A stretch of 64,000 bases of DNA from a virus. Lineage: Duplodnaviria; Caudoviricetes. Below, one piece after another: positions 20,045 through 44,912 of this stretch (position 1 is the stretch's first letter; each line of letters opens with the position of its first letter). The notes under the pieces are model-generated. The model was not told the origin of the DNA and did not search any database. It was given only the letters and a program-made list of their open reading frames with translations. Location of the stretch: IMG/VR virus record IMGVR_UViG_2772190672_000001, positions 32,001 through 96,000 of that record; one strand, 5' to 3'. Made by a program: the position numbers and the translations under genes.

Positions 20045-20084
20045 TGGTCTTGCCTTTCTGTGGTGGTGTGTCCTGCTTTCATTC

Positions 20085-20133
20085 TTGACCAACCGGCCGG
20101 GTTTACCCTCGTGTCCCGACTGGCTTGGCCCAG
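20085..20133. repeat. 49-bp palindromic element core, copy A (right arm degenerate)
   Basis: TTGACC at 20085, CTC at offset +23. Confidence 0.7.
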
Positions 20134-20169
20134 GGGCCCCGACTGGTGCGGGGCCCTTGCGCCACTACG

Positions 20170-21333
20170 TCAGGAGGCGCTGGTCTTGGGGGTGTTGGTG
20201 GCCTCCGCCTCGGGGGCGACCCGGAGCGCTCCCGCCAGGACGGTGGCCGCGGTGGCGGCCTTGGCCAGGTTCTGGGCGGCCTTCGTGGCGACCTGCCGCA
20301 GGTGGTCGATCCGCATCTTGTTGCCGGGGATGCCACCGTGCGCCCCGGAGAGGAGGAGCGCCAGCGTGTCGGGATCCAGGTCGGCGATCTCCTGGAGGAT
20401 CTTGCCCGCGTCCTCCAGCCTGCCGATCTTGCCGACGAGCTTCTTGCGGTCGGCCACGATCTGCTCGCGCTTGTCGACGTCCACGGCCAGCTCGGGGAAC
20501 ATGCTGTCGTCGACCTTGTCGGCGCCGGGGGCGTCCTCGGCCAGGACGAACATGACGCTCTGGCTGGCCGCTTCCTGCTCCTCGTTGCGGACCCTCGTGC
20601 AGAACATCTCGGCCTCGCGGGGGCTGTTGAACTGGCCGCGGGTCCAGCGGGCGATGAACGCGTTCTGGTTGGCCGGGCTGATCTGCGAGGCGTACCAGGC
20701 CAGGCCGACCGGCAGGTGGCCCTTGAGCAGCGCCTCCTGCACGGCGGGCACGAGCTTGAGGAGGGAGAGTCGCAGGTCCACGTAGTTCCAGCTCTTGCCG
20801 ACCCGCTTGGCGACCGCTTCGGGGGTCAGCCCGAAGTCCATCAGCTTCTTGAAGGCCCGCGCCTCCTCCAGCGGGGTCATGTTCTCGCGGCTGAGGTTCT
20901 CCGCCACCGACCGCTCGAAGCCCTCCAGCGTCTCCGAGCCGCCCTCCAGGCCGTGGGTCACCATCGCCGGGATGTCGGCCTTGCCTGCGATCTGGGAGGC
21001 CCTCCACCGGCGCTCGCCCGCGATCAGCATGTACCGCTTGGTGCCCCGGATGTAGCGGAGGCTGACCGCCTGCTGGACGCCGATCTCCTTGATGCTGGCG
21101 GCCAGCTCCTCCAGCTTCTCCTGGTCGAAGACTTCGCGAGGCTGGTTCGGGTCGCGGTCGATCCGGTCGAGCGGGACCGTCTTGAACGCCGTCTTGACCG
21201 CGGCCGGCGCCGCCGGGGCCGGGGCCGCCGCCTTCTTGGTCGGGGCCTTGCGGGTGGTCGGCTTCTTCGCCGCGTCCTTATTGGCGGGGGCCTTCGCGGT
21301 GGCCTTCTTGATGGTGGCGGTGGTGGCGGTCAT
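20170..21333 (-). CDS. ParB/RepB/Spo0J family protein with Lys/Ala-rich N-terminus
   Basis: NQPREVF, LIAGERRWRA, ENLSRENMTPLEEA, HTH. Confidence 0.9.
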   Translation of the reverse strand: MTATTATIKKATAKAPANKDAAKKPTTRKAPTKKAAAPAPAAPAAVKTAFKTVPLDRIDRDPNQPREVFDQEKLEELAASIKEIGVQQAVSLRYIRGTKRYMLIAGERRWRASQIAGKADIPAMVTHGLEGGSETLEGFERSVAENLSRENMTPLEEARAFKKLMDFGLTPEAVAKRVGKSWNYVDLRLSLLKLVPAVQEALLKGHLPVGLAWYASQISPANQNAFIARWTRGQFNSPREAEMFCTRVRNEEQEAASQSVMFVLAEDAPGADKVDDSMFPELAVDVDKREQIVADRKKLVGKIGRLEDAGKILQEIADLDPDTLALLLSGAHGGIPGNKMRIDHLRQVATKAAQNLAKAATAATVLAGALRVAPEAEATNTPKTSAS

Positions 21334-21380
21334 GGCGCCCTCCGTGGTGAGTGGATGGGTGGTGTGTCGCGCAGTCATCA

Positions 21381-21429
21381 TTGACCAAAGCTCTCGGGGT
21401 AACCTCGGTGTGCCAATGGATTTGGCCGT
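21381..21429. repeat. 49-bp element core, copy B
   Basis: TTGACC...GGGGTAAC-CTC...TTTGGCCGT. Confidence 0.8.
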
Positions 21430-21501
21430 ACAGTTGGCAAGCGTGCCCAGGTCAGAGCCCTGCCGGAGGCCCACGCCGAGAGGGCGCGGGCCGGGTGTTC
21501 G

Positions 21502-21816
21502 CTAGATGAAGGGGGCCAGCGCCAGGGCCCCGCGGGTGATGACGTCGTCGCCGCCACCCCGGAGGAGGGCGCGGGTGGCAGCCATCAGGTCGCGGCGGGC
21601 CTGCTCGCGGTGCTGGATGACCCTCTGGCGGAGCGTCTCACCGGAGGCGATCAGCTTCTCGTGGTCCAGCTCGCCCTTGCGGACGCTCCGGCGGATCTCG
21701 ATCGCCCATTCCACCTGCTCGGTGCGGAGCAGTCGCTTCACGAGGTCGAGTGCGTCACCCGCGTCGCCCGCGCCGGCGATCAGCTCGATTTCCTCGGTGA
21801 GGGCCGTGATGTCCAT
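21502..21816 (-). CDS. Hypothetical helical protein
   Basis: GGGAG RBS + ATG just downstream of element C. Confidence 0.7.
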   Translation of the reverse strand: MDITALTEEIELIAGAGDAGDALDLVKRLLRTEQVEWAIEIRRSVRKGELDHEKLIASGETLRQRVIQHREQARRDLMAATRALLRGGGDDVITRGALALAPFI

Positions 21817-21860
21817 CGCTCGCTCCCTGGGGGGGTTGGTGGTATGTCGTGCATTCATCC

Positions 21861-21909
21861 TTCCGCCAGCCCACCTGGCCAACCTCGTTGTCCCGGTGGA
21901 TTTGGTCAA
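21861..21909. repeat. 49-bp element core, copy C (left arm TTCCGC)
   Basis: AAC-CTC-GTT centre, GATTTGGTCAA. Confidence 0.85.
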
Positions 21910-21916
21910 AGGATCG

Positions 21917-22261
21917 TCAGGAAACCCGCAGGTCAGCCGGTGGGCGACGGTTGACGTGCACGTGGAGGGTGCCGGGCTCCAGGACGGGTGACGGGTCCCC
22001 GTCGGCCCGCACCAGCTCGGGCCGCAGCTGCTCCAGCCAGGGCCACAGGATGCCGGGGGCGAACGTGACCGCCAGGTGGGTGGCGCCGCCGAGCCGGGCC
22101 GACAGGTCCGCGGCGGTCGTCCTGCGGCGGGGCTCGCGGCGGGGCCTCGCCGTCTGCTGGCGGCCCAGCTCGCCGACCGGCGCGGGCACGAACCGGGGGG
22201 CCAGCGGGGAGACGGGCGCGGCACCGAAGAGGGCGATCTGTCCGGCCGGGGTCTCAGGCAT
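21917..22261 (-). CDS. Hypothetical protein
   Basis: Overlaps upstream gene end; high GC3. Confidence 0.55.
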   Translation of the reverse strand: MPETPAGQIALFGAAPVSPLAPRFVPAPVGELGRQQTARPRREPRRRTTAADLSARLGGATHLAVTFAPGILWPWLEQLRPELVRADGDPSPVLEPGTLHVHVNRRPPADLRVS

Positions 22262-22985: not shown

Positions 22986-23067
22986 CGGTGCGCCCTTTCT
23001 TGGGTGTCGGGTGGAGGATGAGAGCGGGCCGGGGAGCGCTGCCTGCTCCCCGGCCCGCCGGCGGCTG

Positions 23068-24635: not shown

Positions 24636-24678
24636 CGTGTGCTCCCTGGAGGTGAGGTGGTGTGTCGCACTTCATTCA

Positions 24679-24727
24679 TTGACCAAACCTCCCGGTTTAC
24701 TCTCCCTGCACCGGTGGGTTTGGTCAA
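24679..24727. repeat. 49-bp element core, copy D
   Basis: TTGACCAAACC...GGTTTGGTCAA. Confidence 0.9.
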
Positions 24728-24750
24728 AGAAGCGGCAGGAAAGCCGCTGG

Positions 24751-25551
24751 TCAGGCCCGGCCCGCCAGCTCCGCCAGGGCCCGGAGGGCGGTAACCGCCG
24801 CAGCGAGGTCTCGGACGGCGATCACGTTGAGATCGAGGCCGAGGGCGCGGACGTCGTGAGCCTGACGGGCGGGGACGAGGACGGTGCGGTGGCCGTTGAT
24901 GTGCGCGGTGCGGGCCGCGTCGGTGACGCCGGGGAGACCGTTGATCGCCCCGTCGAAGCCGCGCAGCTCGCCGAGGAGCACGACCTGGCCGAGCACGCGG
25001 GAGTCGAGCTGGCCGCTGGCGGCGAGGACGGTGCAGGCTGTCGCGAGGTCGAGCGTGCTGGTCACGTTATGGTGGTCGTTGATCCGGACCGTCACCGCGC
25101 CGTCGGGGAAGGTGAAGCCGCTGCTGACGATCGCGCCGTGGATCCGCCCTTCCGGCGCGGTGTCGAAGGTGTGCCATCCGGTGATCCGGAAGCTGTCCGG
25201 GCCGGGCCAGACCGTGGCCTCGACCAGCACCATCCCGGTGCTGGCGGCGCCGTTGGTGTGGGCGGAGGTGGCGGCCAGGTTGCTGAGGTTGCTGGTCGGG
25301 GCGAGCGCGTAGTCGGGGTTGCCGGATGCCCGCCGCAGGCCGTCGATGAAGCTGTCGAGGGCCTCGGCCCCTGTGGCGCCCTGGATGATGTCCACCTGGC
25401 CGAGGGCGTCGCCCGCTTCGACGTCCAGCTCCTCGACCGCCCTGCGCCTGCGAATGAGGTCGGCCGGCGCGGGGGCGATGTCCCACAGGGTGTAGCTGGC
25501 GGCGTCCCTGCGGCCGACGATGATGAACTCGGGGGTGCGGGTGGTGATCAT
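24751..25551 (-). CDS. Second ChlI/ComM N-terminal-like domain protein
   Basis: RIHGAIVSSGF, LDLATA, LLGELRGFDG. Confidence 0.7.
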   Translation of the reverse strand: MITTRTPEFIIVGRRDAASYTLWDIAPAPADLIRRRRAVEELDVEAGDALGQVDIIQGATGAEALDSFIDGLRRASGNPDYALAPTSNLSNLAATSAHTNGAASTGMVLVEATVWPGPDSFRITGWHTFDTAPEGRIHGAIVSSGFTFPDGAVTVRINDHHNVTSTLDLATACTVLAASGQLDSRVLGQVVLLGELRGFDGAINGLPGVTDAARTAHINGHRTVLVPARQAHDVRALGLDLNVIAVRDLAAAVTALRALAELAGRA

Positions 25552-25931: not shown

Positions 25932-25979
25932 GTCTGGCGCTCCGTCCCTGATGGGTGGTGGTGTGTCCTGCCTTCATCT

Positions 25980-26028
25980 TTCCGCAAACAAGCCGGGATA
26001 ACCTCGCTATCCCGGCTGAATTGGTCAA
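25980..26028. repeat. 49-bp element core, copy E
   Basis: AGCCGGGATA-ACCTCGC-TATCCCGGCT inner stem, TTGGTCAA. Confidence 0.9.
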
Positions 26029-26050
26029 GGATTGTCAGGAAAGCCGCTGG

Positions 26051-27847
26051 TCAGGCGGCCAGGTCGTAGCGGTCGATCTCCTCGCCGGTGATGCACTCGG
26101 CGAGCATGCAGATCAGGACCTCCGAGACGTTCGGGGTGACCGCGTTGCCCAGCTGGCGCACCCGGTCGCGCTTCGAGCCCAGCACCACGTAGTCGTCGGC
26201 GAAGGCCATCGCGCGCTGGATCTCGTGCGGCTGGAGCATCCGGAACAGGACGTCTTCGATCTTGATGTCCCCCTGGACCAGGGCGAAGCGGTCACGGGTG
26301 GAGATCGCGCCGACGGGCTCGCTGACCGGGCGCGGGGTCCCGTTGCCGTAGTACGGGGCCAGGAAGGGTTCCCAGGTGACGAGGGACTGGTGGCCGGTGG
26401 TGGTGAGGGTCCGCATCGGCTCGGCCAGGTCGGTGCAGTGCTCGCCGCCGTCGCCGGTGGAGCCGTTGTTCCGCATCATCATGCCCGGCATCGGGACCGC
26501 GGCCAGGCCGTGGTGATTGCCGCTGGCGCAGACCGTCGCGAGCGGGTCGCTGATCGCGCGGACGTCGCTGCTGCCGCCCCGGATCTCGGTGATGAACGGC
26601 AGCCACGCGAGCCCGGCCTCGGCCCTGGCGGTCTGGGTCTGCATCGGCCCGTAGACCGTGCGGGCGTTCTTGCCTTCGCGGCCGTCGCACGGGACGAGCA
26701 GCGGCGGTACCGCCAGCGCGTCATTCTCGCGGGTGGTGCGGGTCGGCATCGGGTCGAGGAGGTCGGTGGCCGAGTCCCGCCAGGTGCCGCCGGTGGGCAC
26801 CATCAGCGGGCGGGCGAACTTGTCCAGCCCGGCCTGGATGCGCCGCATCGTCTTCTCGGCCAGCGGGGTCTTGCGGTCGCCGATCCGACCGCCCGCGATC
26901 GACCAGTCGATGGCCGCCGCCGCGGGGAGCGTCTCGGGTTCCACGATCTGGTGGCCACACTTCGTGTTCGGGCACCGGTAGTCGTACTGGCTCTTGTACC
27001 GGCCCATGTCGACGCCGGGCTTCCGGAAGACCTGCCGGGCCTTGACCATCTGGTCGCAGCCGGTGCAGAACGCTGAGGGGGCGAGCCACTTCTCGAAGTT
27101 CGGGGTGCGGCCGAGGCTCTGGTGCCAGTAGACCAGGTAGAGACGGTCGCGGGACTGCGGGGCGCGGTGCACCGAGCGCGGCTCGGCGTGCATCGAGTTC
27201 AGCGCGACCAGCCGGGTCCGGTAGCCCATCTTGTGGAACTCCGCGATCCAGCGGTCCCACTCGGCCCACTGCCGGACGTCGACCACGTTCTCGACCACGC
27301 CCGCCTTGACCAGGCCGCCGCGCTCGATTACGCCTCGCAGGTAGAGCGGGATCTCTTCCATCAGCGCCCGACTGGCCTCATCCTCCGCCGTCGGGCCGCT
27401 GTCCCTCTCGTCCTCCGTCTGGAACTTATCCGCCTCCAGGTCTGCGTACAGGTCGAGCAGGTCGCCCTGGACGGCCTTGGCGAAGTCCCGCTTTTTGCCC
27501 TGGGCAATGCTCCACCGAGTGCACTCGGGCGAGCCCCAGTGGATGTCGGTGATCGGCCAGGCCCAGACCGGGGCCTTGCGGATGTCGCCGATGTAGTGGG
27601 CGACGCCGGGGAAGTTCCGCTCGTGACTCTCGATCGCCCGCCGCCAGTGGTTCGCGGCCCGGGTCACCTTGACGTTCGGGACGGCGTCCGCGCCCTGGGT
27701 GGAGCCACCCGCCCCGCAGAACCAGTCCATGACCGACAGCTCGGTGCCGTCGTGCCTGTACGCCTTGGTTCGCCGGCGCAGGGCGTAGGTCTGGGCCGAG
27801 CTGGAGGCCGAGGCCATCGCGCGGGTGGTGGAGGAGATGTAGGGCAT
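26051..27847 (-). CDS. DNA (cytosine-5) methyltransferase
   Basis: FCGAGG (I), GSPEC (IV), VENV (VI), QSRDR (VIII), LGNAV (X). Confidence 0.92.
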   Translation of the reverse strand: MPYISSTTRAMASASSSAQTYALRRRTKAYRHDGTELSVMDWFCGAGGSTQGADAVPNVKVTRAANHWRRAIESHERNFPGVAHYIGDIRKAPVWAWPITDIHWGSPECTRWSIAQGKKRDFAKAVQGDLLDLYADLEADKFQTEDERDSGPTAEDEASRALMEEIPLYLRGVIERGGLVKAGVVENVVDVRQWAEWDRWIAEFHKMGYRTRLVALNSMHAEPRSVHRAPQSRDRLYLVYWHQSLGRTPNFEKWLAPSAFCTGCDQMVKARQVFRKPGVDMGRYKSQYDYRCPNTKCGHQIVEPETLPAAAAIDWSIAGGRIGDRKTPLAEKTMRRIQAGLDKFARPLMVPTGGTWRDSATDLLDPMPTRTTRENDALAVPPLLVPCDGREGKNARTVYGPMQTQTARAEAGLAWLPFITEIRGGSSDVRAISDPLATVCASGNHHGLAAVPMPGMMMRNNGSTGDGGEHCTDLAEPMRTLTTTGHQSLVTWEPFLAPYYGNGTPRPVSEPVGAISTRDRFALVQGDIKIEDVLFRMLQPHEIQRAMAFADDYVVLGSKRDRVRQLGNAVTPNVSEVLICMLAECITGEEIDRYDLAA

Positions 27848-27891
27848 TCGGTCCGTCCCTTCCGGGTGGGTGGGTGTGTCGTCCTCTTTCA

Positions 27892-27940
27892 TTGACCCCA
27901 CCCCTCGGGATAACCTCGTTATCCCGATGGGTTTGGTCAA
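27892..27940. repeat. 49-bp element core, copy F
   Basis: TTGACCCCACCCCTCGGGATAAC-CTC-GTTATCCCGATGGGTTTGGTCAA (23-bp arms, 3 mismatches). Confidence 0.95.
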
Positions 27941-27963
27941 AGAATCGTCAGTGAAGCCGCGGG

Positions 27964-28848
27964 TCAGATGCCGTCCGGCCGGAACGGGATCAGGGGGAAA
28001 AGGTCCCGGTCGAGCGCGTACCAGCCCCACTCGTGGCCGCCGATGGCGTACCGGCCGTCGGCGTTGGGGTGGAGGACCTCGACCGCCTGCTCGCGCCGCT
28101 CGCCGGCGAGGTGCATCCAGCAGGTGACGATGACGACCGCGTGCCGGGTGCGGTTGACCCTGCCGCTCAGGACGTGAACGGTGTCGATCGAGCCGTGCCC
28201 GTACCTGGCGGCGTCTCGCTGGGTGTCGGCGGCGATCCGGCGGACGGTGCGGAGGTCGAGCCAGGGCCGCACGTAGCCGTCGCGCTGGTCAGCGGGGTCG
28301 ATGAGCGCCGGGTAGTGGTCGCGGTCGTTGGCACACACCAGGACTTCGACCATCGAGCCGGGGGCGGCTTCCGGGGCGGCCGGGCTGGGCGGGTCGAGGG
28401 TGAGGGAGGCGGCCCGCATGAGGTCGAGGGTGAAGGCGGGTCGGCCGTAGCGGTCGGGCAGTTCGTCGCACAGTGGGCGCCAGACACCTCGGGTGTTGTC
28501 GTCCAGGTATGCCGTCCAGCCACTGAGGTCGTGCAGGGCGTTCCCGGCCTCGGTCTGGCCGACGTCGTCGGTGAAGGTGCGCTCGGCGCCGGCCGTCGTC
28601 CAGTAGCGGCCGGTGGGAAACAGCGAGTCCTCGCCTGCGACCAGTTCGAGGCGGGCGGCATCGAAGGGGGCGCCGGGCTGGTGGCCGGTGAGGATGTCGC
28701 GGACGGCCGCGGCGGTGACGACGAGCATGACGCGGCCGAGCTGCTCGTGCGCGGTCTGGTTGTCGTTCAGGGCCTGGTCGACGGCTGCGCCGAGCGCGCT
28801 GCTGGCGGGCAGTTCGTAGGCGGGGCGAGAAGGGGGCTGGCGGTCCAT
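27964..28848 (-). CDS. Hypothetical protein, shares a domain with 29879-30982
   Basis: IDTVHV...PNADGRYAIGGHEWGW. Confidence 0.75.
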   Translation of the reverse strand: MDRQPPSRPAYELPASSALGAAVDQALNDNQTAHEQLGRVMLVVTAAAVRDILTGHQPGAPFDAARLELVAGEDSLFPTGRYWTTAGAERTFTDDVGQTEAGNALHDLSGWTAYLDDNTRGVWRPLCDELPDRYGRPAFTLDLMRAASLTLDPPSPAAPEAAPGSMVEVLVCANDRDHYPALIDPADQRDGYVRPWLDLRTVRRIAADTQRDAARYGHGSIDTVHVLSGRVNRTRHAVVIVTCWMHLAGERREQAVEVLHPNADGRYAIGGHEWGWYALDRDLFPLIPFRPDGI

Positions 28849-28891
28849 GCCGGGTCCGTTCTGTGTGTGGTGGGTGTTGCATCCTCGATCA

Positions 28892-28940
28892 TTGACCCCA
28901 CCATCCGGGGTAACCTCGTTACCCCGGCCGATTTGGTCAA
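28892..28940. repeat. 49-bp element core, copy G
   Basis: CCGGGGTAAC-CTC-GTTACCCCGG; TTGACC/GGTCAA ends. Confidence 0.95.
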
Positions 28941-28962
28941 AGAAGCGTCAGGAAGTCGCTGG

Positions 28963-31346: not shown

Positions 31347-31388
31347 GCCGGGCTCCCTGGGTGATGGTGGGTGGTGACACCTTCTTCA

Positions 31389-31437
31389 TTGACCCCACCT
31401 GCCGGGATAACCTCGATATCCCGGTTGATTTGGTCAG
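31389..31437. repeat. 49-bp element core, copy H
   Basis: CCGGGATA-ACCTCGA-TATCCCGG; GATTTGGTCAG. Confidence 0.92.
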
Positions 31438-31461
31438 GGAATCGACAATGAAGCCGCTGGT

Positions 31462-32762: not shown

Positions 32763-32810
32763 TACTGCCCCTTTCCGGGGGATTTGGCGTGTTGTGTCGC
32801 ATCCTCTTCA

Positions 32811-32859
32811 TTGACCCCGCCCGCCGGGTTAACCTCCGTAACCTGTTGAGTTTGGTCAA
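32811..32859. repeat. 49-bp element core, copy I
   Basis: TTGACCCC...GGGTTAAC-CTC...TTTGGTCAA. Confidence 0.9.
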
Positions 32860-32913
32860 GTAATCGCCAGCGGAACCTCCCGGCCGGTGGTCCGCTGCGC
32901 GGGCCCCGGCCCG

Positions 32914-34732: not shown

Positions 34733-34776
34733 GTCGGGCTCCTGGGGGTTTGTAGTGGTTGGCATCATCCTCTTCA

Positions 34777-34825
34777 TTGCCGATACCTTCCGGGGTAACC
34801 TCACTACCCTGATTGATTTGGTCAA
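34777..34825. repeat. 49-bp element core, copy J
   Basis: TTGCCG...GGGGTAAC-CTC-ACTACCC...GATTTGGTCAA. Confidence 0.9.
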
Positions 34826-34848
34826 GAAATCGTCAGGGAAACCGCAGG

Positions 34849-37596
34849 TCAGGCCACTGCGAACAGGTCCAACTGTTCCGGCGTCTGGTCGTCGGCCTCC
34901 AGCGGGGGCAGCTCCGCCATCGGCTTCTGCTTGAGGTCCGGCAGCACCGGCCGCGGCTGCGGGTTCTCGGCGTCCTCCCGCAGCTCGGCGACTACCGCGG
35001 CGTCCAGATCGTGCGTCTCGATCTCCTCGTCGCTCGGCACCCATCCGGCCGGCCGCCGCTGGAGCCGGAAGACGATGCCGTGCACCTTCGCCCAGGCCGC
35101 CCAGAGCCGGTCTTCCCGGTCCTCCCACTCCATCAGCCGCTTGTGGGCCTCCCGGAACTCTGCGCTCGCTGCCTTCCGGTCGGCCGCGTCCTTGGCGGCC
35201 TGTTCGGCGAGCCTGCGGGCCTGGACCCCATGGAGGAGCGGACGCAGCTTCTCGCATTCCTGCTCGCGGTTCTTCTCCACCGGGCGCGGCTTCCACCGCT
35301 TCCACACGGCCACCGCCCGGCGGCCGTCGACTGTCACCAGCACCGGCCGCTCACGGTTGGCGTCGGCCGCGCCGACGGTGACGAACCCGGCCTTCTGCAG
35401 GGCGCTCAGCCGGTGGACCGACATCAGGCGGCCAGCGGTGCCGGGGATGTCCCGGCAGTACAGCGAGCCGAACTGATGGAGGTAGAGCCGTCCGGCAGCC
35501 GCGGCGATGACGAATTCGGCCTGGCCGGTCGACCAGCCGAGCGCGGCGGCCTGCTCGCGCTGCAGACGCAGCTCCTTCGGGTCCTCGGTGGGCGGGGCGG
35601 GCTCGTCGATCGGCTGCTCGGGCTCGGGGGCCGGGGGCTCGTCGACCGGCTGCTCGGGCTCGTCGACTGGTGCGGCCACCTCGGCGGGCGGCTCGGGGGC
35701 CGGGGGTTCCTCGGCCGGGGGGTCGACCGGCGCGGCCTGGTCGGCCGAGGGCTGCTCGGGCGCGGCCTCGGTGGGTTCGGTGGGCTCGATGCCGTGGACG
35801 ATGCCGCTTCCCACGCTGCCGCTCCAGTTGCTGCCCCGGTACCGGAAGCCCTCCGCCACCAGGAGCCGCCAGACCTCCCGCTTCAGTGCCGCCGAGTAGA
35901 CCGCGTCCGTGAACTTCGTGCCCTCGGGCGCCGTGATGGTGACCGGCTGCCTCAGCTTGTGCGGCTGGCCCTTGCCGTCGAGGAACGTCAGCGTCGCCTC
36001 GGTGGCGTCCCACCCGCACTCGACCTTGACCTTCTTCGGGATCTTCGGGTCGCTGCGCTTCTTCGTCTTCGGCTTCGCGGCCTGCGCGGCGCGGACCTCG
36101 CTCGCCGGCTGCGCTAGGTGGGCCTTCTCCGCCGACTTCGTGCCGGGCACCTTGCCGTCCGCGAGGAAGGCCATCATCGCGGCCTCCGGACAGCGGGCCC
36201 GGATCTTCGTGTAGTCCATGCCGAAGGTCCAGGTGCTGCCGCCTTCGGTGGCGTCCTCCAGCGTCATCACCGCTTTCGGCGCCAGCCTCAAATTCCACGC
36301 GATGGACAGCGTCTTGGGGTTGGCCCGCTTGATCTGGTACCAGGTGCCGCTGTAGAGCGCGAAGTCGCCGGGGGCGAAGTCGTCGGCCTCCCACAGCTTC
36401 ACGCCGTTCTGGCGGGCCTCCTCGACCACCTTTTCCCAACCGGCGATCTCCTCGGTCAGGTCCTCGATCCGCCGCTCGTACCGGCCCGCGTCCCGGCCCG
36501 CGGCCAGCTGCTCGTCCCTCCAGCGCTCCTGCTGGCGCAGCTCCGCGTTCAGCTTCTCCAGCCGCCGGCGGGTGCGGTTCGGGTCGTAGCGGCGGGCCTC
36601 GTACTTCGCGGCGGCCTCCGCGCGGTCGCTGTGGTACTGGGCCTTGCCGTGTTCCTCGATCGAGGCCCGCATGTTGTTGTCGCTGCGCTCGATGGCGCGG
36701 CGATGGCGGCGCTCGCTGTGGTGGCCGACGAGGATCGGCTGGCCGGGCTCGATGCCGTCGAGCGCCCCGAGGGCCGCCTTGTGGCGGGCGTCGGAGCGGG
36801 CGGCCGCGCGGCCGGCGTAGTCGCTGTGCCGCTCGGCCCGATTCTCGGCCCGCTCCAGCCGCTCAGCCTCGGCCTCCTTGAAGCTGCGCCGCTGGGTCTC
36901 GTCGATGTCGACGGTCACCTCCCACCCGGCCTCGCGCAGGGCCTTGACCGCCCGGTTGATGCGCAAGCGGTCGGCTTCCCGGTCGCGGGAGTTGCGGATG
37001 TAGAGCGCGCCGAGGTTGCGGGAGGAGCGGAAGCCGATCGGGCGGACGATCTCCCAGACGCCGTCGTGCTTGCGGGAGCCCTCCAAGAGCGTGCCGTCCG
37101 CGCGGGTGTGGGTGATGGTGAGCGAGCCTTTGAAGGACGGCTCCTCAGTCGGGGGCTCCTCAGCCGGGGGCTCGTCGGCCGGGGGCTGCTCGCCCTCTTC
37201 CGGCTGCGCCGGGTCCTCGAGGACCGCCGTCTCACCGGCGGGCTCCTCCGGCTCGGGGGCGGTGGCGGGCTGGGCGGGCGGTTCCTCGCGGACCTTCTCG
37301 ACGGCCCCGTTGCTGATCGTGCAGTGCGGGCGGCCCTTGTCGCTGTACCGGACGCACACGGTGAACGACCAGCCGCCGTCTTCGAGCGCCCAGCGCTCGA
37401 TGTCGTCTGCGCGGGCCGCGACCGTCTCGTCCGCGTGCCCGGTGAGGGTGAGGACGTAGGTCCGGATGCGCTCGCCGGCGCCGTTGTAGTCGCCGTCGAT
37501 GCGGAAGTCCTTGCCCTTGCCCTGGGTGAGGCCGAGGCGCCGCAGGGCGCGGGCGATGGCGATGCTGGGCGTCTTGGCGGGTGGGGTGGTGGCCAT
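34849..37596 (-). CDS. Large multidomain DUF3560-like protein with Pro/Glu linkers
   Basis: GQPILVGHHSERRHRRAIER signature; GAAGGAGG RBS; C-terminal QLDLF. Confidence 0.8.
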   Translation of the reverse strand: MATTPPAKTPSIAIARALRRLGLTQGKGKDFRIDGDYNGAGERIRTYVLTLTGHADETVAARADDIERWALEDGGWSFTVCVRYSDKGRPHCTISNGAVEKVREEPPAQPATAPEPEEPAGETAVLEDPAQPEEGEQPPADEPPAEEPPTEEPSFKGSLTITHTRADGTLLEGSRKHDGVWEIVRPIGFRSSRNLGALYIRNSRDREADRLRINRAVKALREAGWEVTVDIDETQRRSFKEAEAERLERAENRAERHSDYAGRAAARSDARHKAALGALDGIEPGQPILVGHHSERRHRRAIERSDNNMRASIEEHGKAQYHSDRAEAAAKYEARRYDPNRTRRRLEKLNAELRQQERWRDEQLAAGRDAGRYERRIEDLTEEIAGWEKVVEEARQNGVKLWEADDFAPGDFALYSGTWYQIKRANPKTLSIAWNLRLAPKAVMTLEDATEGGSTWTFGMDYTKIRARCPEAAMMAFLADGKVPGTKSAEKAHLAQPASEVRAAQAAKPKTKKRSDPKIPKKVKVECGWDATEATLTFLDGKGQPHKLRQPVTITAPEGTKFTDAVYSAALKREVWRLLVAEGFRYRGSNWSGSVGSGIVHGIEPTEPTEAAPEQPSADQAAPVDPPAEEPPAPEPPAEVAAPVDEPEQPVDEPPAPEPEQPIDEPAPPTEDPKELRLQREQAAALGWSTGQAEFVIAAAAGRLYLHQFGSLYCRDIPGTAGRLMSVHRLSALQKAGFVTVGAADANRERPVLVTVDGRRAVAVWKRWKPRPVEKNREQECEKLRPLLHGVQARRLAEQAAKDAADRKAASAEFREAHKRLMEWEDREDRLWAAWAKVHGIVFRLQRRPAGWVPSDEEIETHDLDAAVVAELREDAENPQPRPVLPDLKQKPMAELPPLEADDQTPEQLDLFAVA

Positions 37597-37910: not shown

Positions 37911-37951
37911 GTCCGGCTCCCTGGGGGTGGTGAGTGGTGACACCTTCTTCA

Positions 37952-38000
37952 TTGACCCCATCCATCGGGTTAACCTCGTTAGCCCGATGGATTTGGTCAA
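37952..38000. repeat. 49-bp element core, copy K
   Basis: ATCCATCGGGTTAAC-CTC-GTTAGCCCGATGGAT. Confidence 0.95.
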
Positions 38001-38022
38001 AAGGTCGGCAAGTATAGGCAGG

Positions 38023-38547
38023 TCAGCGGCCGTCGAGACTCGCCAGCTGGCGGACTAGCCCCCAGCCGTCGCGCCAGAAGGAACGGCGGGTGTTGTCGTA
38101 CGCCTCCTGCCACTCGGGCGGGACCCGGCCGTCACCTCGGGTGTACGTGCCGGTGAGGCCGTCGTACCGGCCCAACAGCTCGGTGGCGTCGTCAGCGAGT
38201 TCATCGAGGCCGCGCCGCCGTTCATGCTCGGGACGCAGATCGACGTGCCCGAGCTCGTGCTGCCCCTGAGGCAGACCCTCGTACGACTCGTCGGCGACCA
38301 CGTAGCAGTCGGGCGTCTCCTCGCCTGCCATGTGCCAGGCGAGCGCTGCCGCCCACGCCTTCTCCGTCGAGCAGGCGTCGAGCACGTACCGGGTGGCGCT
38401 GCCGCTGCGGCCGCTGCAGTCGTGCCGCTCGGGGCCTCGGACGGTCACGGTGAACGGCCGCTCCGCCTGCCGGTAGTCGTCGGGCAGATTGCCGTACAGG
38501 GGCTCGCCGCCGTAGCGCTCGGGCGTCTCCAGGTACTTCCCGGTCAT
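38023..38547 (-). CDS. Hypothetical protein
   Basis: GAAGGA RBS + ATG at 38547. Confidence 0.65.
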   Translation of the reverse strand: MTGKYLETPERYGGEPLYGNLPDDYRQAERPFTVTVRGPERHDCSGRSGSATRYVLDACSTEKAWAAALAWHMAGEETPDCYVVADESYEGLPQGQHELGHVDLRPEHERRRGLDELADDATELLGRYDGLTGTYTRGDGRVPPEWQEAYDNTRRSFWRDGWGLVRQLASLDGR

Positions 38548-38575: not shown

Positions 38576-38728
38576 TGTCCGGATGCTGTCCGGACGGAGT
38601 CCGGGTGCTGTCCGGACGGAGTCCGGGTGCTGTCCGGACACTGCGGGGCCGCTACCAGATGAGGGCGGCGTGACCTGCGCGGACACTGTCCGGACATCCC
38701 GTCCGGACGCTGTCCGGCCGGGTGTCCG
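38576..38728. repeat. Densest cluster of (T)GTCCGGAC(A) palindromic repeats, including a tandem ~23-bp duplication
   Basis: tgctgtccggacggagtccggg repeated; further clusters near 4872-4980, 39210-39263, 50192-50310, 61692-61842, 62326-62345. Confidence 0.85.
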
Positions 38729-39182: not shown

Positions 39183-39268
39183 GGCGGCCTTTCGTGGGGG
39201 CGGAGGAGGGTCCGGACGGCGGCCGCTGAGCTGGGCGGACACTGTCCGGACGCCGTCCGGACAGTGGG

Positions 39269-39898
39269 TCAGGCGAAGTTGGTCTGGTCGGTGTGCTCGC
39301 CGCCGCGCTTCCAGATGAGCGCGCGGACGTGGGCCGCGGGGACCTCGTAGAAGAGGCGGCCGGGGAGCGGCTGGCCGTTGAGGCGGGTCAGCTGGAGTTC
39401 GCGCTCCTCCTGCTCCCAGGCGTCATCGGCGGGCGGTTCGATCGCCTCGGGCAGGTAGACGTCCACGTAGCCGCCGCCGGCGTCGGCCTTGATGGCGATG
39501 ACCTCGCCGTCGGCCAGGCGGATGCGGAGCATCGGGCGGCGGCCGGTGCCGGTGCCGTCGGTGACGGCCTGGTCGAAGCGGTCGGTGACGGGGGCGCTCT
39601 GGTCGGCGTGCTCGCCGCCGTGCTCCTCGATGAGCGTGCGGACTTTGGCCACGGCCACCTCGTAGAAGTAGCGGCCGTCGACCGGCTCGTCGCCGGCGGT
39701 CAGCCACGCCTCCCACGGGTCTTCCAGCTCCCAGCTCTCGCCGTCGGGGGTGCCGATCTCGTTCGGCAGGTAGACGTCCACGGTGGCCGCACAGGAGGCG
39801 GCCTTGATGCTGATGACCTGGCCGTCGGCGAGGCGGAGGTTGTAGTGGACGTCGTTGGTGCCGTCGGTGAGGAACTGCTCGAAGTGGGTGGCGGTCAT
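39269..39898 (-). CDS. Hypothetical protein made of two tandem homologous domains
   Basis: LRLADGQVISIKA..VDVYLP..FYEV..VR.LI..HGGEH.DQ repeated twice. Confidence 0.8.
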   Translation of the reverse strand: MTATHFEQFLTDGTNDVHYNLRLADGQVISIKAASCAATVDVYLPNEIGTPDGESWELEDPWEAWLTAGDEPVDGRYFYEVAVAKVRTLIEEHGGEHADQSAPVTDRFDQAVTDGTGTGRRPMLRIRLADGEVIAIKADAGGGYVDVYLPEAIEPPADDAWEQEERELQLTRLNGQPLPGRLFYEVPAAHVRALIWKRGGEHTDQTNFA

Positions 39899-39943
39899 GG
39901 CTGCTGCTCCGATCTGGGGTGGTGGGTGGTGACACCTTCTTCA

Positions 39944-39992
39944 CTGACCCCACCCATCGGGGTAACCTCATTACCCCGATGGATTTGGTCAA
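39944..39992. repeat. 49-bp element core, copy L
   Basis: CCATCGGGGTAA-CCTCA-TTACCCCGATGG. Confidence 0.95.
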
Positions 39993-40015
39993 GAAGTCGA
40001 CAAGGAAGCCGCCGG

Positions 40016-40630
40016 TCAGACCGAGGTGGCGGCGGCGGTGAAGGCGGCGTCCAGGGACTGGACGAAGTCCGCGCCGACGGCCGCGAGGTGGGCGGCCTGG
40101 CGAGCATCGGCCTGCTCGGCATTCTTGGCGTGGGCGGCCAGGCCGCACGAGCACCAGGCGGTCGTGCGGTCGCTGGATTCCATGCGCTGATGCTTGGCGG
40201 CCACCAGGCTGAGGCGAGCAGACAGGGTGAGCCGCAGGTGCTCGTTGTCGCCGTTGAGGAGGAAGCCCTGCGCGAGGAGCCGGTCGGCCTGGCTGGGCGG
40301 AATTTCGTACGAGCCGGCCGCGATGACGGGCATCGTGTACCGCTCGGAGTCGACGAGCCGGACGGCGGGGACGGAGGCGATGACCCGCAGGTTGGCCAAG
40401 TCGTAGTCGCTGGGGTCGGCGGGGACCCGCGGGGTGAGGGTGATGGAGCGCACGACCCGGGCACGGGTGGCGGGGTCGATCCGACGCCAGCGGATGACGG
40501 CGCCGCCGGTGCGCTGGGGCTCGATGGCGTAGCCGCGGTTACAGGCCCGGCGCAGGAGGAGCAGGGCGTGGGGCTCACTGACGCTGCCGGTGGTGATGCT
40601 GCTGCCGCTGTCGACGGTCTCGGTGAACAT
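40016..40630 (-). CDS. Hypothetical protein with C-terminal CSCG...H motif
   Basis: AAGGAG RBS + ATG. Confidence 0.7.
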   Translation of the reverse strand: MFTETVDSGSSITTGSVSEPHALLLLRRACNRGYAIEPQRTGGAVIRWRRIDPATRARVVRSITLTPRVPADPSDYDLANLRVIASVPAVRLVDSERYTMPVIAAGSYEIPPSQADRLLAQGFLLNGDNEHLRLTLSARLSLVAAKHQRMESSDRTTAWCSCGLAAHAKNAEQADARQAAHLAAVGADFVQSLDAAFTAAATSV

Positions 40631-40708
40631 AGTGGCCGCTCCTTGCTGTCGGGGTGGGCCCGGCCGGGTCCGTGGCCGAGCCCTGGGTGGTGTGTCGTAC
40701 ATTCATCC

Positions 40709-40757
40709 TTGACCAAGCCCAACCGGTTAACCTCCCTACACCGGCCGATTTGGTCAA
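40709..40757. repeat. 49-bp element core, copy M
   Basis: TTGACCAA...CCGGTTAAC-CTC...CCGG..ATTTGGTCAA. Confidence 0.9.
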
Positions 40758-40780
40758 GGGATCGACAAGGAAGCTGCTGG

Positions 40781-41164
40781 TCAGCGGTCCAGCTTGCCGA
40801 ACATGACGTCGGCCACGGACGGGCCCGGCCTGCCCGAGCCGGGCAGCTTCCCGTACAGCGCTCCCTCGCCGGGGCCGCGCTCGTCGTCCGGCTCGGGCTG
40901 CCGCTCCGCCTGCTCGGGCCCGGCCTCCTCGACCGGCGCGCCGTGGCGGGCGAACAGGGCCTTCAGCTTGTCGTCGTCCTCCAGCAGCTCGCGCACGACC
41001 TTGCCGGTGGCCTCGCTGTGTTCGTCGCAGGTGGCGAGCCCGTAGCCGCTGCTGGCGTACACCAGCAGGTACGCCTCGACGCTCTCACCGCCCAGCAGGT
41101 GGCGGACGCACTGCATCGGGGTGCTGATGCGGTGCTCGTAGGTGCGGATCCAGTTGATGTTCAT
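40781..41164 (-). CDS. Hypothetical protein
   Basis: GAAGGGA RBS; high GC3. Confidence 0.7.
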   Translation of the reverse strand: MNINWIRTYEHRISTPMQCVRHLLGGESVEAYLLVYASSGYGLATCDEHSEATGKVVRELLEDDDKLKALFARHGAPVEEAGPEQAERQPEPDDERGPGEGALYGKLPGSGRPGPSVADVMFGKLDR

Positions 41165-41200
41165 GGCGGTCCCTTCGGGTGGGGTGGTGGGGTGGTGGGG

Positions 41201-42127: not shown

Positions 42128-42149
42128 GGTGCTCCTTCCGGTGGTGTGG

Positions 42150-42620: not shown

Positions 42621-42640
42621 GGGGGTCCTTCCGTGGTCGG

Positions 42641-42796: not shown

Positions 42797-42807
42797 GGGG
42801 AGCCCTC

Positions 42808-43161: not shown

Positions 43162-43202
43162 GGCGGCTCCCTTGGGGTGGGTGGTGTGTCGTGCATTCAT
43201 CA

Positions 43203-43251
43203 TTGACCGAATAATCCGGGATTACCGTGTTATCCTGGTTTATTTGGTCAA
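43203..43251. repeat. 49-bp element core, copy N
   Basis: TTGACCGAATAA...GGGATTAC-CGT-GTTATCC...TTATTTGGTCAA. Confidence 0.9.
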
Positions 43252-43304
43252 AGAATCTTCAAGGGATGAGTACTCCGCCGCAGGTCAGCGGCGGGGCGCC
43301 CACC

Positions 43305-44069
43305 TCAGTCGGTCAGCTCGGCGATCAGCACCGTGGCGTTGTCCACGTACTTCCACTCGCCCTCCGGCCGGCTCTTGCGGGACGTCTCCACGGCCAGGTC
43401 CACGAAGCCCTGCGCGATGCCCCGCAGGTCACCGTCGTCCAGCTCCACGTACAGGTCATGCCCGGCCTCGTCGTGCGGCTCGTACGCGCCGTCGCTGGCC
43501 AGGACAAGGCGGTCGCCGTCGACCAGCGGGCGGGCGGCGGCCTCGATCGCCGGGTGGCCGTAGATGTCCAGGGCTTCCTGGTCGGTGTAGACGGCCCCCA
43601 GGTAGGAGGTGATGACGTTGCGGCTGCCGCCCTCGGGGTTGGTGGCGGCGGGCGGGAGGACCCGGCGCTCGTTGTGGTCGTCGGTCAGCCGGTAGGCGAT
43701 GCCGCGCCGGAGCAGGTAGGCGCGGGAGTCCCCGGCCCAGGCCAGGCCGAGGGAACGGCCGGGGGCGGCGACCGCGACGACGGCGGCCGCGCTGGGCATG
43801 TACCGCCGGGTGTACGGGTCCTGACGGTCGGGGTCGGCCGCGATCTCCTCGTAGAGGGAGCGCAGGGCGCTCTCGGCGTCGCCGCGGCGGGCGGCCCGGA
43901 TGGCGAGGCGGGCGGCCGTCCGGCGGGTCCAGTCGCGGATCGCCTCGGAGGTGCCGATGCCGTCGAGGACCACGTAGGCGCGGGTGCCGTCGGGGGCGGT
44001 ACGGACGGCTGCCGCGTCGCACTGGAGGCCCCTGCCGCCGGTGTTCTGGGCGGTCGCGTAACTGCGCAT
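43305..44069 (-). CDS. PP2C-family Ser/Thr phosphatase
   Basis: VVLDGIG, AWAGDSRAY, LTDDH, LASDG, DNAT. Confidence 0.9.
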   Translation of the reverse strand: MRSYATAQNTGGRGLQCDAAAVRTAPDGTRAYVVLDGIGTSEAIRDWTRRTAARLAIRAARRGDAESALRSLYEEIAADPDRQDPYTRRYMPSAAAVVAVAAPGRSLGLAWAGDSRAYLLRRGIAYRLTDDHNERRVLPPAATNPEGGSRNVITSYLGAVYTDQEALDIYGHPAIEAAARPLVDGDRLVLASDGAYEPHDEAGHDLYVELDDGDLRGIAQGFVDLAVETSRKSRPEGEWKYVDNATVLIAELTD

Positions 44070-44142
44070 GGATCGTTCTCCGTTCAGTGAGGGGTGAGGG
44101 GGCGCCGCGCGGCCGGGTGGCCGCGCGGCGCCGTCGGCTCGG

Positions 44143-44631
44143 TCAGGCGCGCTCGCCGGCGGGGCGGACGCAGGTCTCGTGGGTGTGGCAGTTGCACTTC
44201 CCGCAGCCCGCGCACATCTGCCCGGCCTCCAACCCGCAAGGGCCGCAGCCGCCGGTCGCGTCCAGCTCGGCGTCGTCGAGCGCACAGGTCAGGTCGGCGG
44301 CTGCGGCCAGACTGAAGCGGGGGCGGGGTTTGCACGAGCCGTCGCAGGTCTCGGGGCCACCGAGGAGCACGCCGTCCTCGCCGGCGTGACCGTCGCAGCC
44401 CGCGGGGTCTCGGACGATCACGGTGACGTCGTGGACCTTGAGCGTGGCCTCGCCACGGATGGCCCAGTCCGAGGCGATGCCGCCGACGATGGCGATCATC
44501 TCGCGGTCGTTGGTGGTGGGCTTGCCCTGAGCGCGGGCGACGCCCCAGACGATGTTCCGCAGCTCGCCCTGGCGGTCGGCGAAGTAGGTGCGGTCCTCGA
44601 TGCCGGGGTGCTCGATGGTGACTTCGAACAT
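44143..44631 (-). CDS. Hypothetical protein with Cys-rich C-terminus
   Basis: GAAGGAG RBS; CGPCG..CAGCGKCNCH. Confidence 0.7.
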   Translation of the reverse strand: MFEVTIEHPGIEDRTYFADRQGELRNIVWGVARAQGKPTTNDREMIAIVGGIASDWAIRGEATLKVHDVTVIVRDPAGCDGHAGEDGVLLGGPETCDGSCKPRPRFSLAAAADLTCALDDAELDATGGCGPCGLEAGQMCAGCGKCNCHTHETCVRPAGERA

Positions 44632-44669
44632 GGGCTGCTCCTTCGTGGGTGGGTGTTCCTTGCCCATCT

Positions 44670-44719
44670 TGGACCATGTGGACCAGGATTGTGGACGTTA
44701 TCCCAAATAAGTTGGTCGA
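44670..44719. repeat. Degenerate element core, copy O (50 bp)
   Basis: TGGACC...GTTATCCC..TTGGTCGA; upstream TGA 23 nt away as in other copies. Confidence 0.55.
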
Positions 44720-44741
44720 AAAGTGGTGGGTTGACGGCCGT

Positions 44742-44912
44742 TCAGGCGCCCAGGTCGCAGCGCTCGCAGAAGACGATGCCGCTGCCGTCGATGAGGCAGA
44801 CCAGTTCGCGCCCGCAGTCGCACATGCCGAGGTCGGGCAGTTCCGGCAGCGGCTGGGTGATCCGGATGGCCGGAATGCTGACGGTGGTGGCCGCAATGAT
44901 GGGGGCGCTCAT
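44742..44912 (-). CDS. Small zinc-ribbon protein, first gene of the array
   Basis: CDCG...FCERC; GGGAGGG RBS; resembles 24417-24635. Confidence 0.65.
   Translation of the reverse strand: MSAPIIAATTVSIPAIRITQPLPELPDLGMCDCGRELVCLIDGSGIVFCERCDLGA

Follow-up and report, generated by a model that had tools for sequence, protein, structure and literature searches.

Why would a phage place the same palindromic element in front of one group of unrelated genes after another? This question is raised by a 64,000-nt stretch of DNA (the window), which comprises bases 32001–96000 of the IMG/VR provirus IMGVR_UViG_2772190672_000001 (G000), rated complete by CheckV and, judged by its genes, the genome of a temperate Streptomyces siphophage. 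Here, 15 copies of an element of ~110 bp punctuate a 25-kb array of accessory genes, which runs leftward from a divergent candidate regulator gene (45042–45689, plus strand) to a tRNA gene near the late operon. From its anatomy and from comparison with related prophages, the element is most likely a repeated terminator/promoter/operator unit that also provides a seam for swaps of accessory genes between related phages. As such, it would most likely be, by analogy, the actinophage counterpart of the promoter-stem-loop (PeSL) cassettes of T4-type phages, and not a new kind of system.

A previous reading of the letters by themselves (the sequence-only reading) had described 15 intergenic copies in a single orientation, and this is borne out by both a repeat search and an nhmmer profile built from the copies. 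All 15 lie on the minus strand, which is the gene strand, between window positions 20057 and 44752, with E-values from 4e-14 to 2e-30; the repeat search groups them in an 11-copy family and overlapping families spanning 20060–43279. With the profile, no further copies were detected outside the array in the whole 111,280-bp record. When the fixed-geometry core TTGACCAAAY-N33-GGTCAATGA was searched with at most three mismatches, 11 gene-strand elements matched, against 0.00 in dinucleotide shuffles. Every copy is located between genes, and because the gaps holding an element have a median length of 118 bp (32 bp in those of the array without one), the element occupies the whole gap. The units headed by the elements count one to five genes, and not one to four as proposed before.

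The consensus was derived from an alignment of 33 copies from two phages, in gene direction. Its 5' part consists of CTGACC(t/a)GCGG.TT(t/c)CC, TGaCGATTC and (c/t)TTGACCAAAt, followed by ~4 variable nucleotides, its centre of CGGGATAAC-GAG-GTTAtCCCG and a variable stretch, and its 3' part of (T/G)GGTCAATGA(T/A)GAA.G and GAC(A/C)CACCACC, the latter two harboring an AT-rich AATGA(A/T)GAA box and a C/A-rich leader (GACACACCACC) that extends to the ribosome-binding site (RBS) and start codon; the conserved part stops 10–30 nt short of the RBS. Two dyads can be recognized: an imperfect outer dyad of 49 bp, TTGACCAAA...TTTGGTCAA, and an inner 8-3-8 dyad, GGGrTAAC-GAG-GTTAyCCC. Both the consensus of the sequence-only reading and its distance of 49 nt from TTGACC to GGTCAA in the clear copies were correct according to the alignment. 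Its degenerate copy at 44670 is indeed degenerate, but so, in part, are the first copy (20057) and those at 21353 and 21833.

The stop codon of the upstream gene is frequently part of the element itself. In ten of the 15 copies, and in 11 of the 18 copies of an IMG/VR relative of 118,918 bp (G001), the in-frame TGA lies within CTGACC at a fixed 25–27 nt from the GACCAA anchor, and in several of the remaining copies a second TGA, within CTGACGA, is used. Since the control regions at the head of the array (44913–45041, minus strand, in the studied phage), as aligned for eight phages, retain this 5' motif without any open reading frame (ORF) terminating there, it has a role beyond supplying a stop codon, and it may be a binding site. 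Two copies of the 5' motif (..CAACCTGCGGTTTTGA.. and ..CTGACCTGCGGTTATCCCGG..) are also found in a fairly AT-rich non-coding stretch at 53600–54250, which might serve the same factor as a further binding region, or else be an origin or immunity region.

Distribution and exchange of the cassettes

An exact-pattern scan of IMG/VR identified one syntenic relative, G001, with 75–85% nucleotide identity and 18 elements. A stricter pattern, run over 185,579 species genomes, matched only four Streptomyces genomes. In each of these, a covariance model (R1) locates 14–18 copies, all in one ~26-kb stretch and on one strand, and none elsewhere in the host genomes of 7.6–9.6 Mb, so that the covariance or hidden Markov model search of Streptomyces suggested by the sequence-only reading leads to single prophage arrays. 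Streptomyces sp. Act143 carries G001 in its chromosome and accounts for one of the four arrays. Further members of the family lie in prophages of Actinacidiphila reveromycinica, S. afghaniensis and Streptomyces sp. NBC_01728, so that at least seven other genomes of Streptomycetaceae have a related prophage with the element; a sample of 150 other Streptomyces genomes, scanned with stricter filters, yielded no match. Because the element occurs in single prophage arrays, without copies elsewhere in the hosts, and is missing from the 150 sampled genomes, we conclude that this is a lineage-specific phage element and not a host repeat. The 25-kb array had no megablast match among phages and only gene-level matches among plasmids, and a single element had no blastn match in 50,697 phage records. 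Likewise, the searchable literature returned no prior description of the element, in agreement with its not having been recognized as a described one at first sight, nor of TurkishDelight, the temperate Streptomyces phage that is the nearest isolated relative (portal protein 64% identical).

At the corresponding genome position, TurkishDelight, too, has a homologous divergent regulator, behind which lie ~6 near-identical canonical promoters, TTGACA/T-N17-CAGTAT/CACCAT, with an operator-like spacer of the TTGCAAAGT type, and GC-rich hairpins lie between most genes of the array, preceding the promoters. A third variant is found in pSITFR-21c of Streptomyces sp. ITFR-21 (NZ_CP134608.1; 103.5 kb). 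This replicon was deposited as a circular 'non-mobilizable plasmid', carries genes for a major capsid and a minor head protein as well as the same array layout, and is a phage genome or phage-plasmid. Its array holds two further element types, which have the 5' motif (CTGACCTGCGGnTTTC) in common with the studied elements and carry TATGAT, AATGAT or CATAGT at the position of AATGA(A/T). Since both TurkishDelight and pSITFR-21c keep it, the combination of a regulator, a one-directional accessory array and repeated control modules constitutes a conserved layout. The sequence of the module differs from lineage to lineage while this layout persists, as expected of regulator-operator sets that co-evolve.

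Do the elements also mark where genes are exchanged? Collinearity between G000 and G001 is broken seven times: three of the breaks coincide with the 5' edge of an element, a fourth is the clean gain or loss of a cassette flanked by two elements, a fifth a complex replacement that contains two extra elements, and the remaining two are found elsewhere. Across five independent arrays, the backbone of gene families is conserved and its order mostly kept, and families 26, 25, 6, 2, 1, 24 and 23 vary in position or copy number among the arrays, in many cases forming single-gene units with an element on either side. In the case of families 26 and 25, the moved unit comprises an element, a gene and a GC-rich hairpin, which makes these cassettes complete transcription units, and homology sets in with the stop codon of the preceding gene, where the element has its 5' edge. 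Adjacency of neighboring genes is kept in a mean of 1.62 of four other genomes when an element lies between them, compared to 2.16 of four otherwise (pairwise odds ratio 0.58, p=5.5e-4, with pairs that are non-independent).

Furthermore, elements that only have the downstream gene family in common are more alike than background in their 3' leader (0.735 vs 0.637, p=1.4e-4), and no more alike than background in their 5' motif and dyad. As only the 3' leader stays with the downstream gene, the conserved 5'-central ~75 nt would be an exchangeable seam. Such behavior is as expected for homologous recombination between direct repeats, and nothing in the sequences points to a site-specific mechanism. 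A role as junction for gene exchange is thus supported by these comparisons. The sequence-only reading had put this idea forward, to be given up if gene order proved fixed with breakpoints unrelated to the repeats; it survives through the moved element-bounded families, the odds ratio and the leader-only linkage, but order is mostly conserved and breakpoints do occur elsewhere.

Promoter, dyad and rival explanations

So where in the element would transcription start? The promoter consensus of Streptomyces is TTGAC(R)-N17-18-TAG(R)(R)T. Among the 58 best-scoring copies from five phages, TTGACC is near-invariant (55–58 of 58 at each base) and is separated by exactly 17 nt from GAGGTT, in which position 2 is an A in 46 and position 6 a T in 55 copies. 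Of the downstream box AATGA(A/T), position 2 is an A in 57 copies, and position 6 a T in 36 and an A in 20. These boxes can be read in two ways. In the first (P_A), TTGACC would be the −35 and GAGGTT the −10 box, agreeing with the Streptomyces consensus at 9 of 12 positions; it is favored by the invariant TTGACC and the exact 17-nt spacer. In the second (P_B), (A)GGTTA, N17 and AATGA(A/T) would form the promoter, with a start at the conserved GACAC and a typical leader of 25–35 nt. P_B is favored because the head regions of eight phages keep GAGGgT, TGGACA-N17-AATGAAG and ACGACAAACCACC without the dyad arms or the P_A spacing, and because degenerate copies retain the 3' half while losing the left TTGACC. 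In either case, the element likely contains a promoter, and a promoter/operator role is plausible from its anatomy and by analogy with the syntenic canonical promoters of TurkishDelight. Two other types of promoter were considered and rejected: a promoter of the sigma-B type (GTTT..GGGTAT) agrees with the head promoter of pSITFR-21c, but its spacing does not fit the studied elements, and an N4-like hairpin promoter or single-stranded (Frpo-like) promoter would have its −10 box in the 3-nt loop, while Streptomyces transfer and phage injection use double-stranded DNA.

Taken together, we consider it reasonably probable that the element is a composite of a regulated promoter and a dyad serving as operator and/or attenuator, of which the direct repeats double as substrates for homologous recombination. 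Each element would restart transcription for the next unit of one to five genes. The inner dyad, since it overlaps the −10 box of P_A or the −35 box of P_B, would be the operator for a regulator of the phage, for which the divergent protein with its two helix-turn-helix (HTH) repeats would be the best candidate and a ParB/KorB-like protein of the array the alternative. As both P_A and P_B place the start within the right arm or downstream of it, the whole hairpin would be present only in RNA reading through from the upstream unit, following the logic of PeSLs, where it may attenuate transcription or stabilize the 3' end. Finally, as direct repeats, the ~110-bp modules could undergo homologous recombination within their conserved 5'-central ~75 nt, by which cassettes would be deleted, duplicated or relocated while only the 3' leader stays with its downstream gene.

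We must however take into account several results that plead against this explanation. A strict sigma-70 consensus scan of the array returned 0 sites and accepted neither P_A nor P_B (the antisense strand gave few weak terminator-like matches in the same scan), and both GAGGTT and AATGAA are non-canonical as −10 boxes. The head region lacks the TTGACC-N17-GAGGTT spacing although a promoter must be there, and for this reason P_A and P_B cannot both be explained simply. Covariation in the dyad is weak, with 73.7% paired cells vs 71.0% in column shuffles and a score of 0.150 vs 0.110, in a test that is inflated by the relatedness of the copies, and about a third of the copies fold poorly (z of −2.5 or weaker), which renders a terminator role uncertain. 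Orthologous elements show no overall signal of constraint relative to 4-fold-degenerate sites (identity 0.77 vs 0.79). The excess of breakpoints at elements is modest, derives from non-independent pairs, and is accompanied by breakpoints away from elements. As for the divergent protein, synteny and a weak HTH signal are the basis on which it is a candidate: its Pfam match to an AsnC-type HTH (E=9e-4) falls below the family cutoff, and a Foldseek search of its predicted structure against the PDB gave no significant whole-chain match.

Could the palindrome instead act as RNA? The 23+3+23 palindrome that spans the boxes has 67% Watson-Crick pairs, and its predicted hairpins in RNA have energies between −12 and −39 kcal/mol, 17 of 33 copies reaching z of −4 or lower. 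In a purely RNA-level explanation, the elements would be intercistronic hairpins in one polycistronic transcript from the array head, subject to RNase III-type processing, 3'-end stabilization or attenuation, as in T7 early mRNA, and internal promoters would be absent. This we deem unlikely, even though all copies are on the sense strand between cistrons, their leader is conserved, many are able to form an imperfect 23-bp stem of −25 to −39 kcal/mol (z down to −8), and some changes are compensatory, e.g. columns 44/67, with CG 16, UA 7 and UG 5 times. RNAalifold finds no consensus structure for the 33 copies, pairing is barely above that of shuffles, about a third of the copies fold as poorly as mentioned, and mismatches show little sense-strand bias (G-T 52 vs A-C 38). 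Moreover, TTGACC on the left varies far less than the sequence it would pair with, and GAGGTTA is conserved where the partner arm is not; in the array of S. althioticus, the inner arms are no longer complementary and (G/A)GGTTAC is retained. The head regions keep the 3' blocks without the hairpin, the syntenic sites of TurkishDelight are canonical promoters, and Rfam 15 matched, between 19000 and 46000, only the tRNA at 19326–19399 and one sub-threshold chance match, but none of the elements. With sequence being more conserved than pairing, a protein-binding dyad, i.e. an operator, therefore fits better than an obligatory RNA structure, although the stronger hairpins could still attenuate read-through.

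If proteins bind the dyads, they need not do so in order to regulate promoters. KorB of plasmid RK2, for instance, binds 12 palindromic operators across the plasmid. The array encodes a full ParB (387 aa) and one to three small ParB-HTH paralogues, and the distant relative pSITFR-21c was recorded as a circular plasmid with capsid genes, so the dyads could be sites for a ParB/KorB-type or other DNA-structuring protein involved in silencing, partition or genome organization, with the promoter-like boxes being incidental. We hold this to be improbable: the asymmetric boxes are retained where palindromy has decayed, as it has in several copies and throughout the array of S. althioticus, the elements keep a fixed distance to the RBS and occur on the gene strand only, both of which are needless for a centromere, and the clusters of an 8-bp palindrome described below are a better centromere candidate.

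Other explanations take the palindrome as a site of DNA rearrangement. It is conceivable, though very unlikely, that the dyad forms a cruciform or hairpin upon extrusion, to be processed by an array protein (a ParB-like nuclease, Hint/HNH-type or ChlI-domain protein), which would excise and capture promoter-equipped cassettes and permit their integrase-free exchange between co-resident prophages; if true, this would be a functional equivalent of integrons in Actinomycetota. We give hardly any credence to site-specific recombination in the manner of integrons, with attC-like folded palindromes and a dedicated recombinase. Unrelated genes that point in one direction and are separated by imperfect palindromes of fixed length, single-gene cassettes at differing positions in related arrays, and an upstream stop codon within the element all are reminiscent of such a system. 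However, Pfam and PHROG scans of ~40 array and flanking proteins found no tyrosine or serine recombinase, nor any recombinase domain in the array, its head or its tail, and the integron analogy of the sequence-only reading fails for this reason. Furthermore, the element precedes its unit with a leader and RBS, rather than trailing a promoterless cassette, its structure is less conserved than its sequence, the opposite of attC, and exchange points are spread across the conserved 75 nt rather than found at one position, as expected for homologous recombination. Lastly, a selfish miniature repeat without phage function, similar to miniature inverted-repeat transposable or repetitive extragenic palindromic elements, is suggested by a multicopy repeat of ~110 bp with terminal inverted TTGACC/GGTCAA, and can practically be dismissed, as all 14–18 copies per array are in one orientation and in phase with stop codon and RBS, lack copies elsewhere in the phage or the 7.6–9.6-Mb host genomes, have no evident target-site duplications, and keep orthologous positions between phages.

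Array genes, regulator and phage context

In gene direction, the array opens with a 56-aa gene of family 1 (44742–44912), transcribed from the head region; all positions that follow are on the minus strand. Element 1 (44642–44752) is the degenerate copy, with TCGACC for TTGACC, a weak dyad and an nhmmer score of 48.5 bits, and its unit encodes a 162-aa protein and a PP2C-like protein of 254 aa (Pfam PP2C). Element 2 (43174–43289) heads five genes. Element 3 (40684–40790) heads a single gene (204 aa), and its 5' edge adjoins a 127-aa gene that is present in G000 but missing from G001. Element 4 (39915–40023), heading three genes, has the best hairpin (−39 kcal/mol). A 209-aa gene at 39269–39898 contains an internal tandem duplication of 315 bp (39283–39377 vs 39598–39692 and 39405–39522 vs 39720–39837, at 75–81% identity). 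Element 5 (37923–38028) heads the gene for a large DUF3560 protein, and element 6 (34748–34858) a unit of three genes including a second one, where G001 carries an extra element-bounded cassette; the two DUF3560 genes have a segment in common (33616–33727 vs 36808–36919). Downstream, element 7 (32782–32888) heads the genes for a ParB-HTH protein (131 aa) and a methyltransferase (275 aa), and element 8 (31360–31471) three genes, one of which encodes a free-standing Hint-domain protein (28963–29850, 295 aa, N-terminal Pfam Hint_2, E=3e-7) with no obvious extein.

Element 9 (28863–28971) heads one gene (294 aa), and element 10 (27865–27970), which was used as reference copy A06, the gene for a C5 cytosine DNA methyltransferase. 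The right outer arm is degenerate in both element 11 (25950–26061), the unit of which encodes a 90-aa and a ChlI-domain protein (266 aa), and element 13 (21833–21940), which heads a 104-aa gene; element 12 (24650–24757), between them, heads four genes. Element 14 (21353–21460), with a degenerate left TTGACC, precedes the gene for the full ParB (N-terminal domain and HTH, 387 aa), and element 15 (20057–20149), the last, has a GC-rich hairpin in place of the 5' motif and heads a 170-aa gene. Most products of the array are of unknown function, the recognizable ones being two DUF3560 proteins, the C5 cytosine methylase and a second methyltransferase, the full ParB, a small ParB-HTH protein, two ChlI-domain proteins, the free-standing Hint protein and the PP2C-like phosphatase. 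Based on the methylases, ParB-like, DUF3560 and PP2C proteins and the many ORFans among them, these accessory genes likely serve DNA-modification or anti-defense functions.

The candidate regulator gene (45042–45689, plus strand) is an ORF of 215 aa, the database homologues of which begin 12 codons later (203 aa). They fall into ~31 clusters, every one of which is from Streptomycetaceae and carries the annotation 'hypothetical'. Identity of the protein amounts to 33% with the product of the same-position gene of pSITFR-21c and to 27% with gp102 of TurkishDelight, which is annotated as an HTH protein, so the candidate regulator is kept at the array head in three phage lineages. Its AlphaFold model (pLDDT, the predicted local distance difference test, 86.6) suggests an internal duplication: two tandem repeats, each combining a long helix and a pair of HTH-like helices, with a small beta domain after them. 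Foldseek yields only short local HTH-like matches, e.g. to the DNA-binding domain of FapR (probability 0.95 over 41 residues, E>1). In the head region opposite to it, the element is represented by the blocks CTGAaCTGgG..TTTTC, TCGACCAAAC, GAGGgT, TGGACA, gAATGAAG and ACGACAAACCACC, with the dyad arms absent and a separate CCGGGrTAAAC box beside the regulator start. A related box, CCGGGATAAAC, adjoins the regulator's own start and would suit autoregulation. Around this start (45020–45080), a conserved CTTGTGCAAGACTCGCGGTATG precedes it on its own strand, and a −10-like AAGACT lies ~7 nt before the ATG, which suggests a leaderless mRNA.

Nearly all genes of the window are leftward. The phage genes include those for the terminase large subunit (13740–15326), the portal (9242–10999) and a MuF-like minor head protein (4682–8551). 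Between the array end and the late operon lies the tRNA gene (19326–19399, minus strand, Rfam 50.7 bits). At 16973–18430 (minus strand), a protein with a phage Dam-like domain 1 (E=2e-82) and a phage GNAT-like domain (E=2e-41) is encoded, then a ParB-N protein and the terminase, an order from which a DNA-modification module at the head of the late operon can be deduced. The late operons bear a different control element, present in nine minus-strand copies and composed of a TAnnnT hexamer, 8 nt and CGCCGCTGGTTnTGGGCCGGGC, so that the phage has at least two classes of repeated control sequence. It is found upstream of the lysis, tail, capsid and modification/terminase operons (genome positions 2374, 3652, 4575, 11894, 12755, 16883, 21174, 35634 and 50460, the last two being ~3634 and ~18460 of the window) and looks like a class of late promoters with a conserved leader and no −35 box.

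Upstream of the regulator, a plasmid-spread-like gene set at 46322–53000 (minus strand) includes genes for NERD-nuclease and SpdB_N-like membrane proteins. In the record, 29 copies of the 8-bp palindrome GTCCGGAC are present, vs ~4.6 expected, in tight clusters at 4873–4963, 38588–38701, 39210–39255, 50226–50295, 61693–61826 and 62327–62473 of the window and at genome positions 3708–3786 and 100296–100397. Such clustering is likewise seen in G001 and pSITFR-21c, and the clusters are candidate centromere sites or other protein-binding arrays.

Precedents and meaning of the array

How does the element relate to repeats known from other phages? In Streptomyces phage phiC31, the c repressor binds conserved inverted repeats (CIRs) as operators, and a conserved motif constitutes the early promoters. 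This closest precedent of the same host genus was missing from the analogues listed by the sequence-only reading, of which those to PeSLs and to the repeats of Cluster K mycobacteriophages are apt, the former by architecture. In the phiC31 record (AJ006589), we find 14 matches to a degenerate CIR pattern (CTACTCACGTGAGTAG-like) genome-wide, concentrated in intergenic gaps of the early region, and nine copies of GGGTTGCCGAC-N-CCTTA, eight of them in the early region; several gaps hold a stop codon, a palindrome within a hairpin, the promoter motif and an RBS. Like the studied phage, phiC31 is temperate and has a similar architecture. However, its CIR (CTACTCACGTGAGTAG) and GGGTTGCCGAC..CCTTA motifs are unrelated to the element consensus, its palindrome and promoter are separate and variably spaced, whereas the studied element fuses both at a fixed length, and its repressor is large and unrelated to the two-repeat candidate regulator. 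To our knowledge, shuffling of cassettes has not been described for phiC31.

Morons, a term of Hendrix and colleagues, reportedly are units of promoter, gene and terminator that occur as isolated, heterogeneous insertions in phages. The cassettes of families 26 and 25, in which an element, one gene and a GC-rich hairpin are inserted at varied places, resemble them, but here ~15 units have a single promoter-type module in common and presumably also a single regulator. The integron attC array likewise combines unrelated, one-directional genes between imperfect palindromes with variable cassette content, but differs in that no integrase was found in the studied array, the element is at the 5' end of its unit with expression signals, sequence and not structure is conserved, and exchange points are spread.

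PeSLs of T4-type phages run from an upstream stop codon, through a sigma-70 promoter with a stem-loop between or over its boxes, to a Shine-Dalgarno sequence and start codon (Arbiol et al. 2010, PMC2839356), and are concentrated in hyperplastic ORFan regions where indels arise via recombination (PMC2839356; Comeau et al. 2014, PMC4122927). The studied element likewise is an intergenic repeat from stop codon to Shine-Dalgarno sequence and start, with a stem-loop overlapping the putative −35/−10 region, in a plastic accessory and ORFan region where indels and replacements between relatives are bounded by modules, a match by analogy only. The two have unrelated sequences, and the studied host is a temperate, high-GC siphophage instead of a lytic T4-like phage. 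Where PeSLs have five stem-loop placements and number ~50, scattered over several regions, the studied element has one rigid 49-bp dyad geometry, a putative −10 box that is non-canonical, and a single contiguous array of 14–18 copies with a divergent regulator dedicated to it at the head. Furthermore, promoter and terminator activity as well as mini-circles have been demonstrated for PeSLs, whereas promoter and terminator activity of the studied elements are predicted from sequence.

In Cluster K mycobacteriophages, the start-associated sequence (SAS) is an RBS-embedded motif of 13 bp, GGGATAGGAGCCC, located 3–7 bp before the start codon, and the extended SAS (ESAS) consists of 17-bp inverted repeats with a variable spacer of 4–13 bp; their function is unknown, with a role in translation having been proposed (Pope et al. 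2011, PMC3203893). One ESAS arm is nearer to the consensus, there is little support for an RNA hairpin and no RNA covariation, and the inverted-repeat consensus is specific to the subcluster (PMC3203893). As in SAS/ESAS, the studied elements have one orientation, occur only in the non-structural half of the genome and just upstream of start codons, with the upstream stop sometimes inside the repeat, and they share with ESAS the imperfect inverted repeats with unequal arms, features that make this analogy apt as well. They differ in having no SAS, a fixed geometry of 49 nt, −35-like and AT-rich boxes, and an RBS outside the conserved part. Judged from its sequence, what would set the studied system apart from all these precedents is the combination of a rigid, fused module of ~110 bp, a stop codon within the motif, a contiguous array of 14–18 copies with a two-repeat regulator, and replacement of the module from lineage to lineage.

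If the explanation proposed here is true, the principle of PeSLs, in which regulatory repeats drive modular shuffling, would hold not only for the lytic T4-like phages of Gram-negative hosts but for temperate actinophages too, with a control module that doubles as homology for the movement of cassettes. Moreover, it would offer a testable model for the unexplained ESAS of Cluster K mycobacteriophages, and would supply a set of related Streptomyces promoters, presumably under common regulation, along with a candidate for their cognate regulator. For the prophages themselves, it would mean that ~30 accessory genes are kept by Streptomyces prophages as a bank of individually promoted, commonly regulated cassettes.

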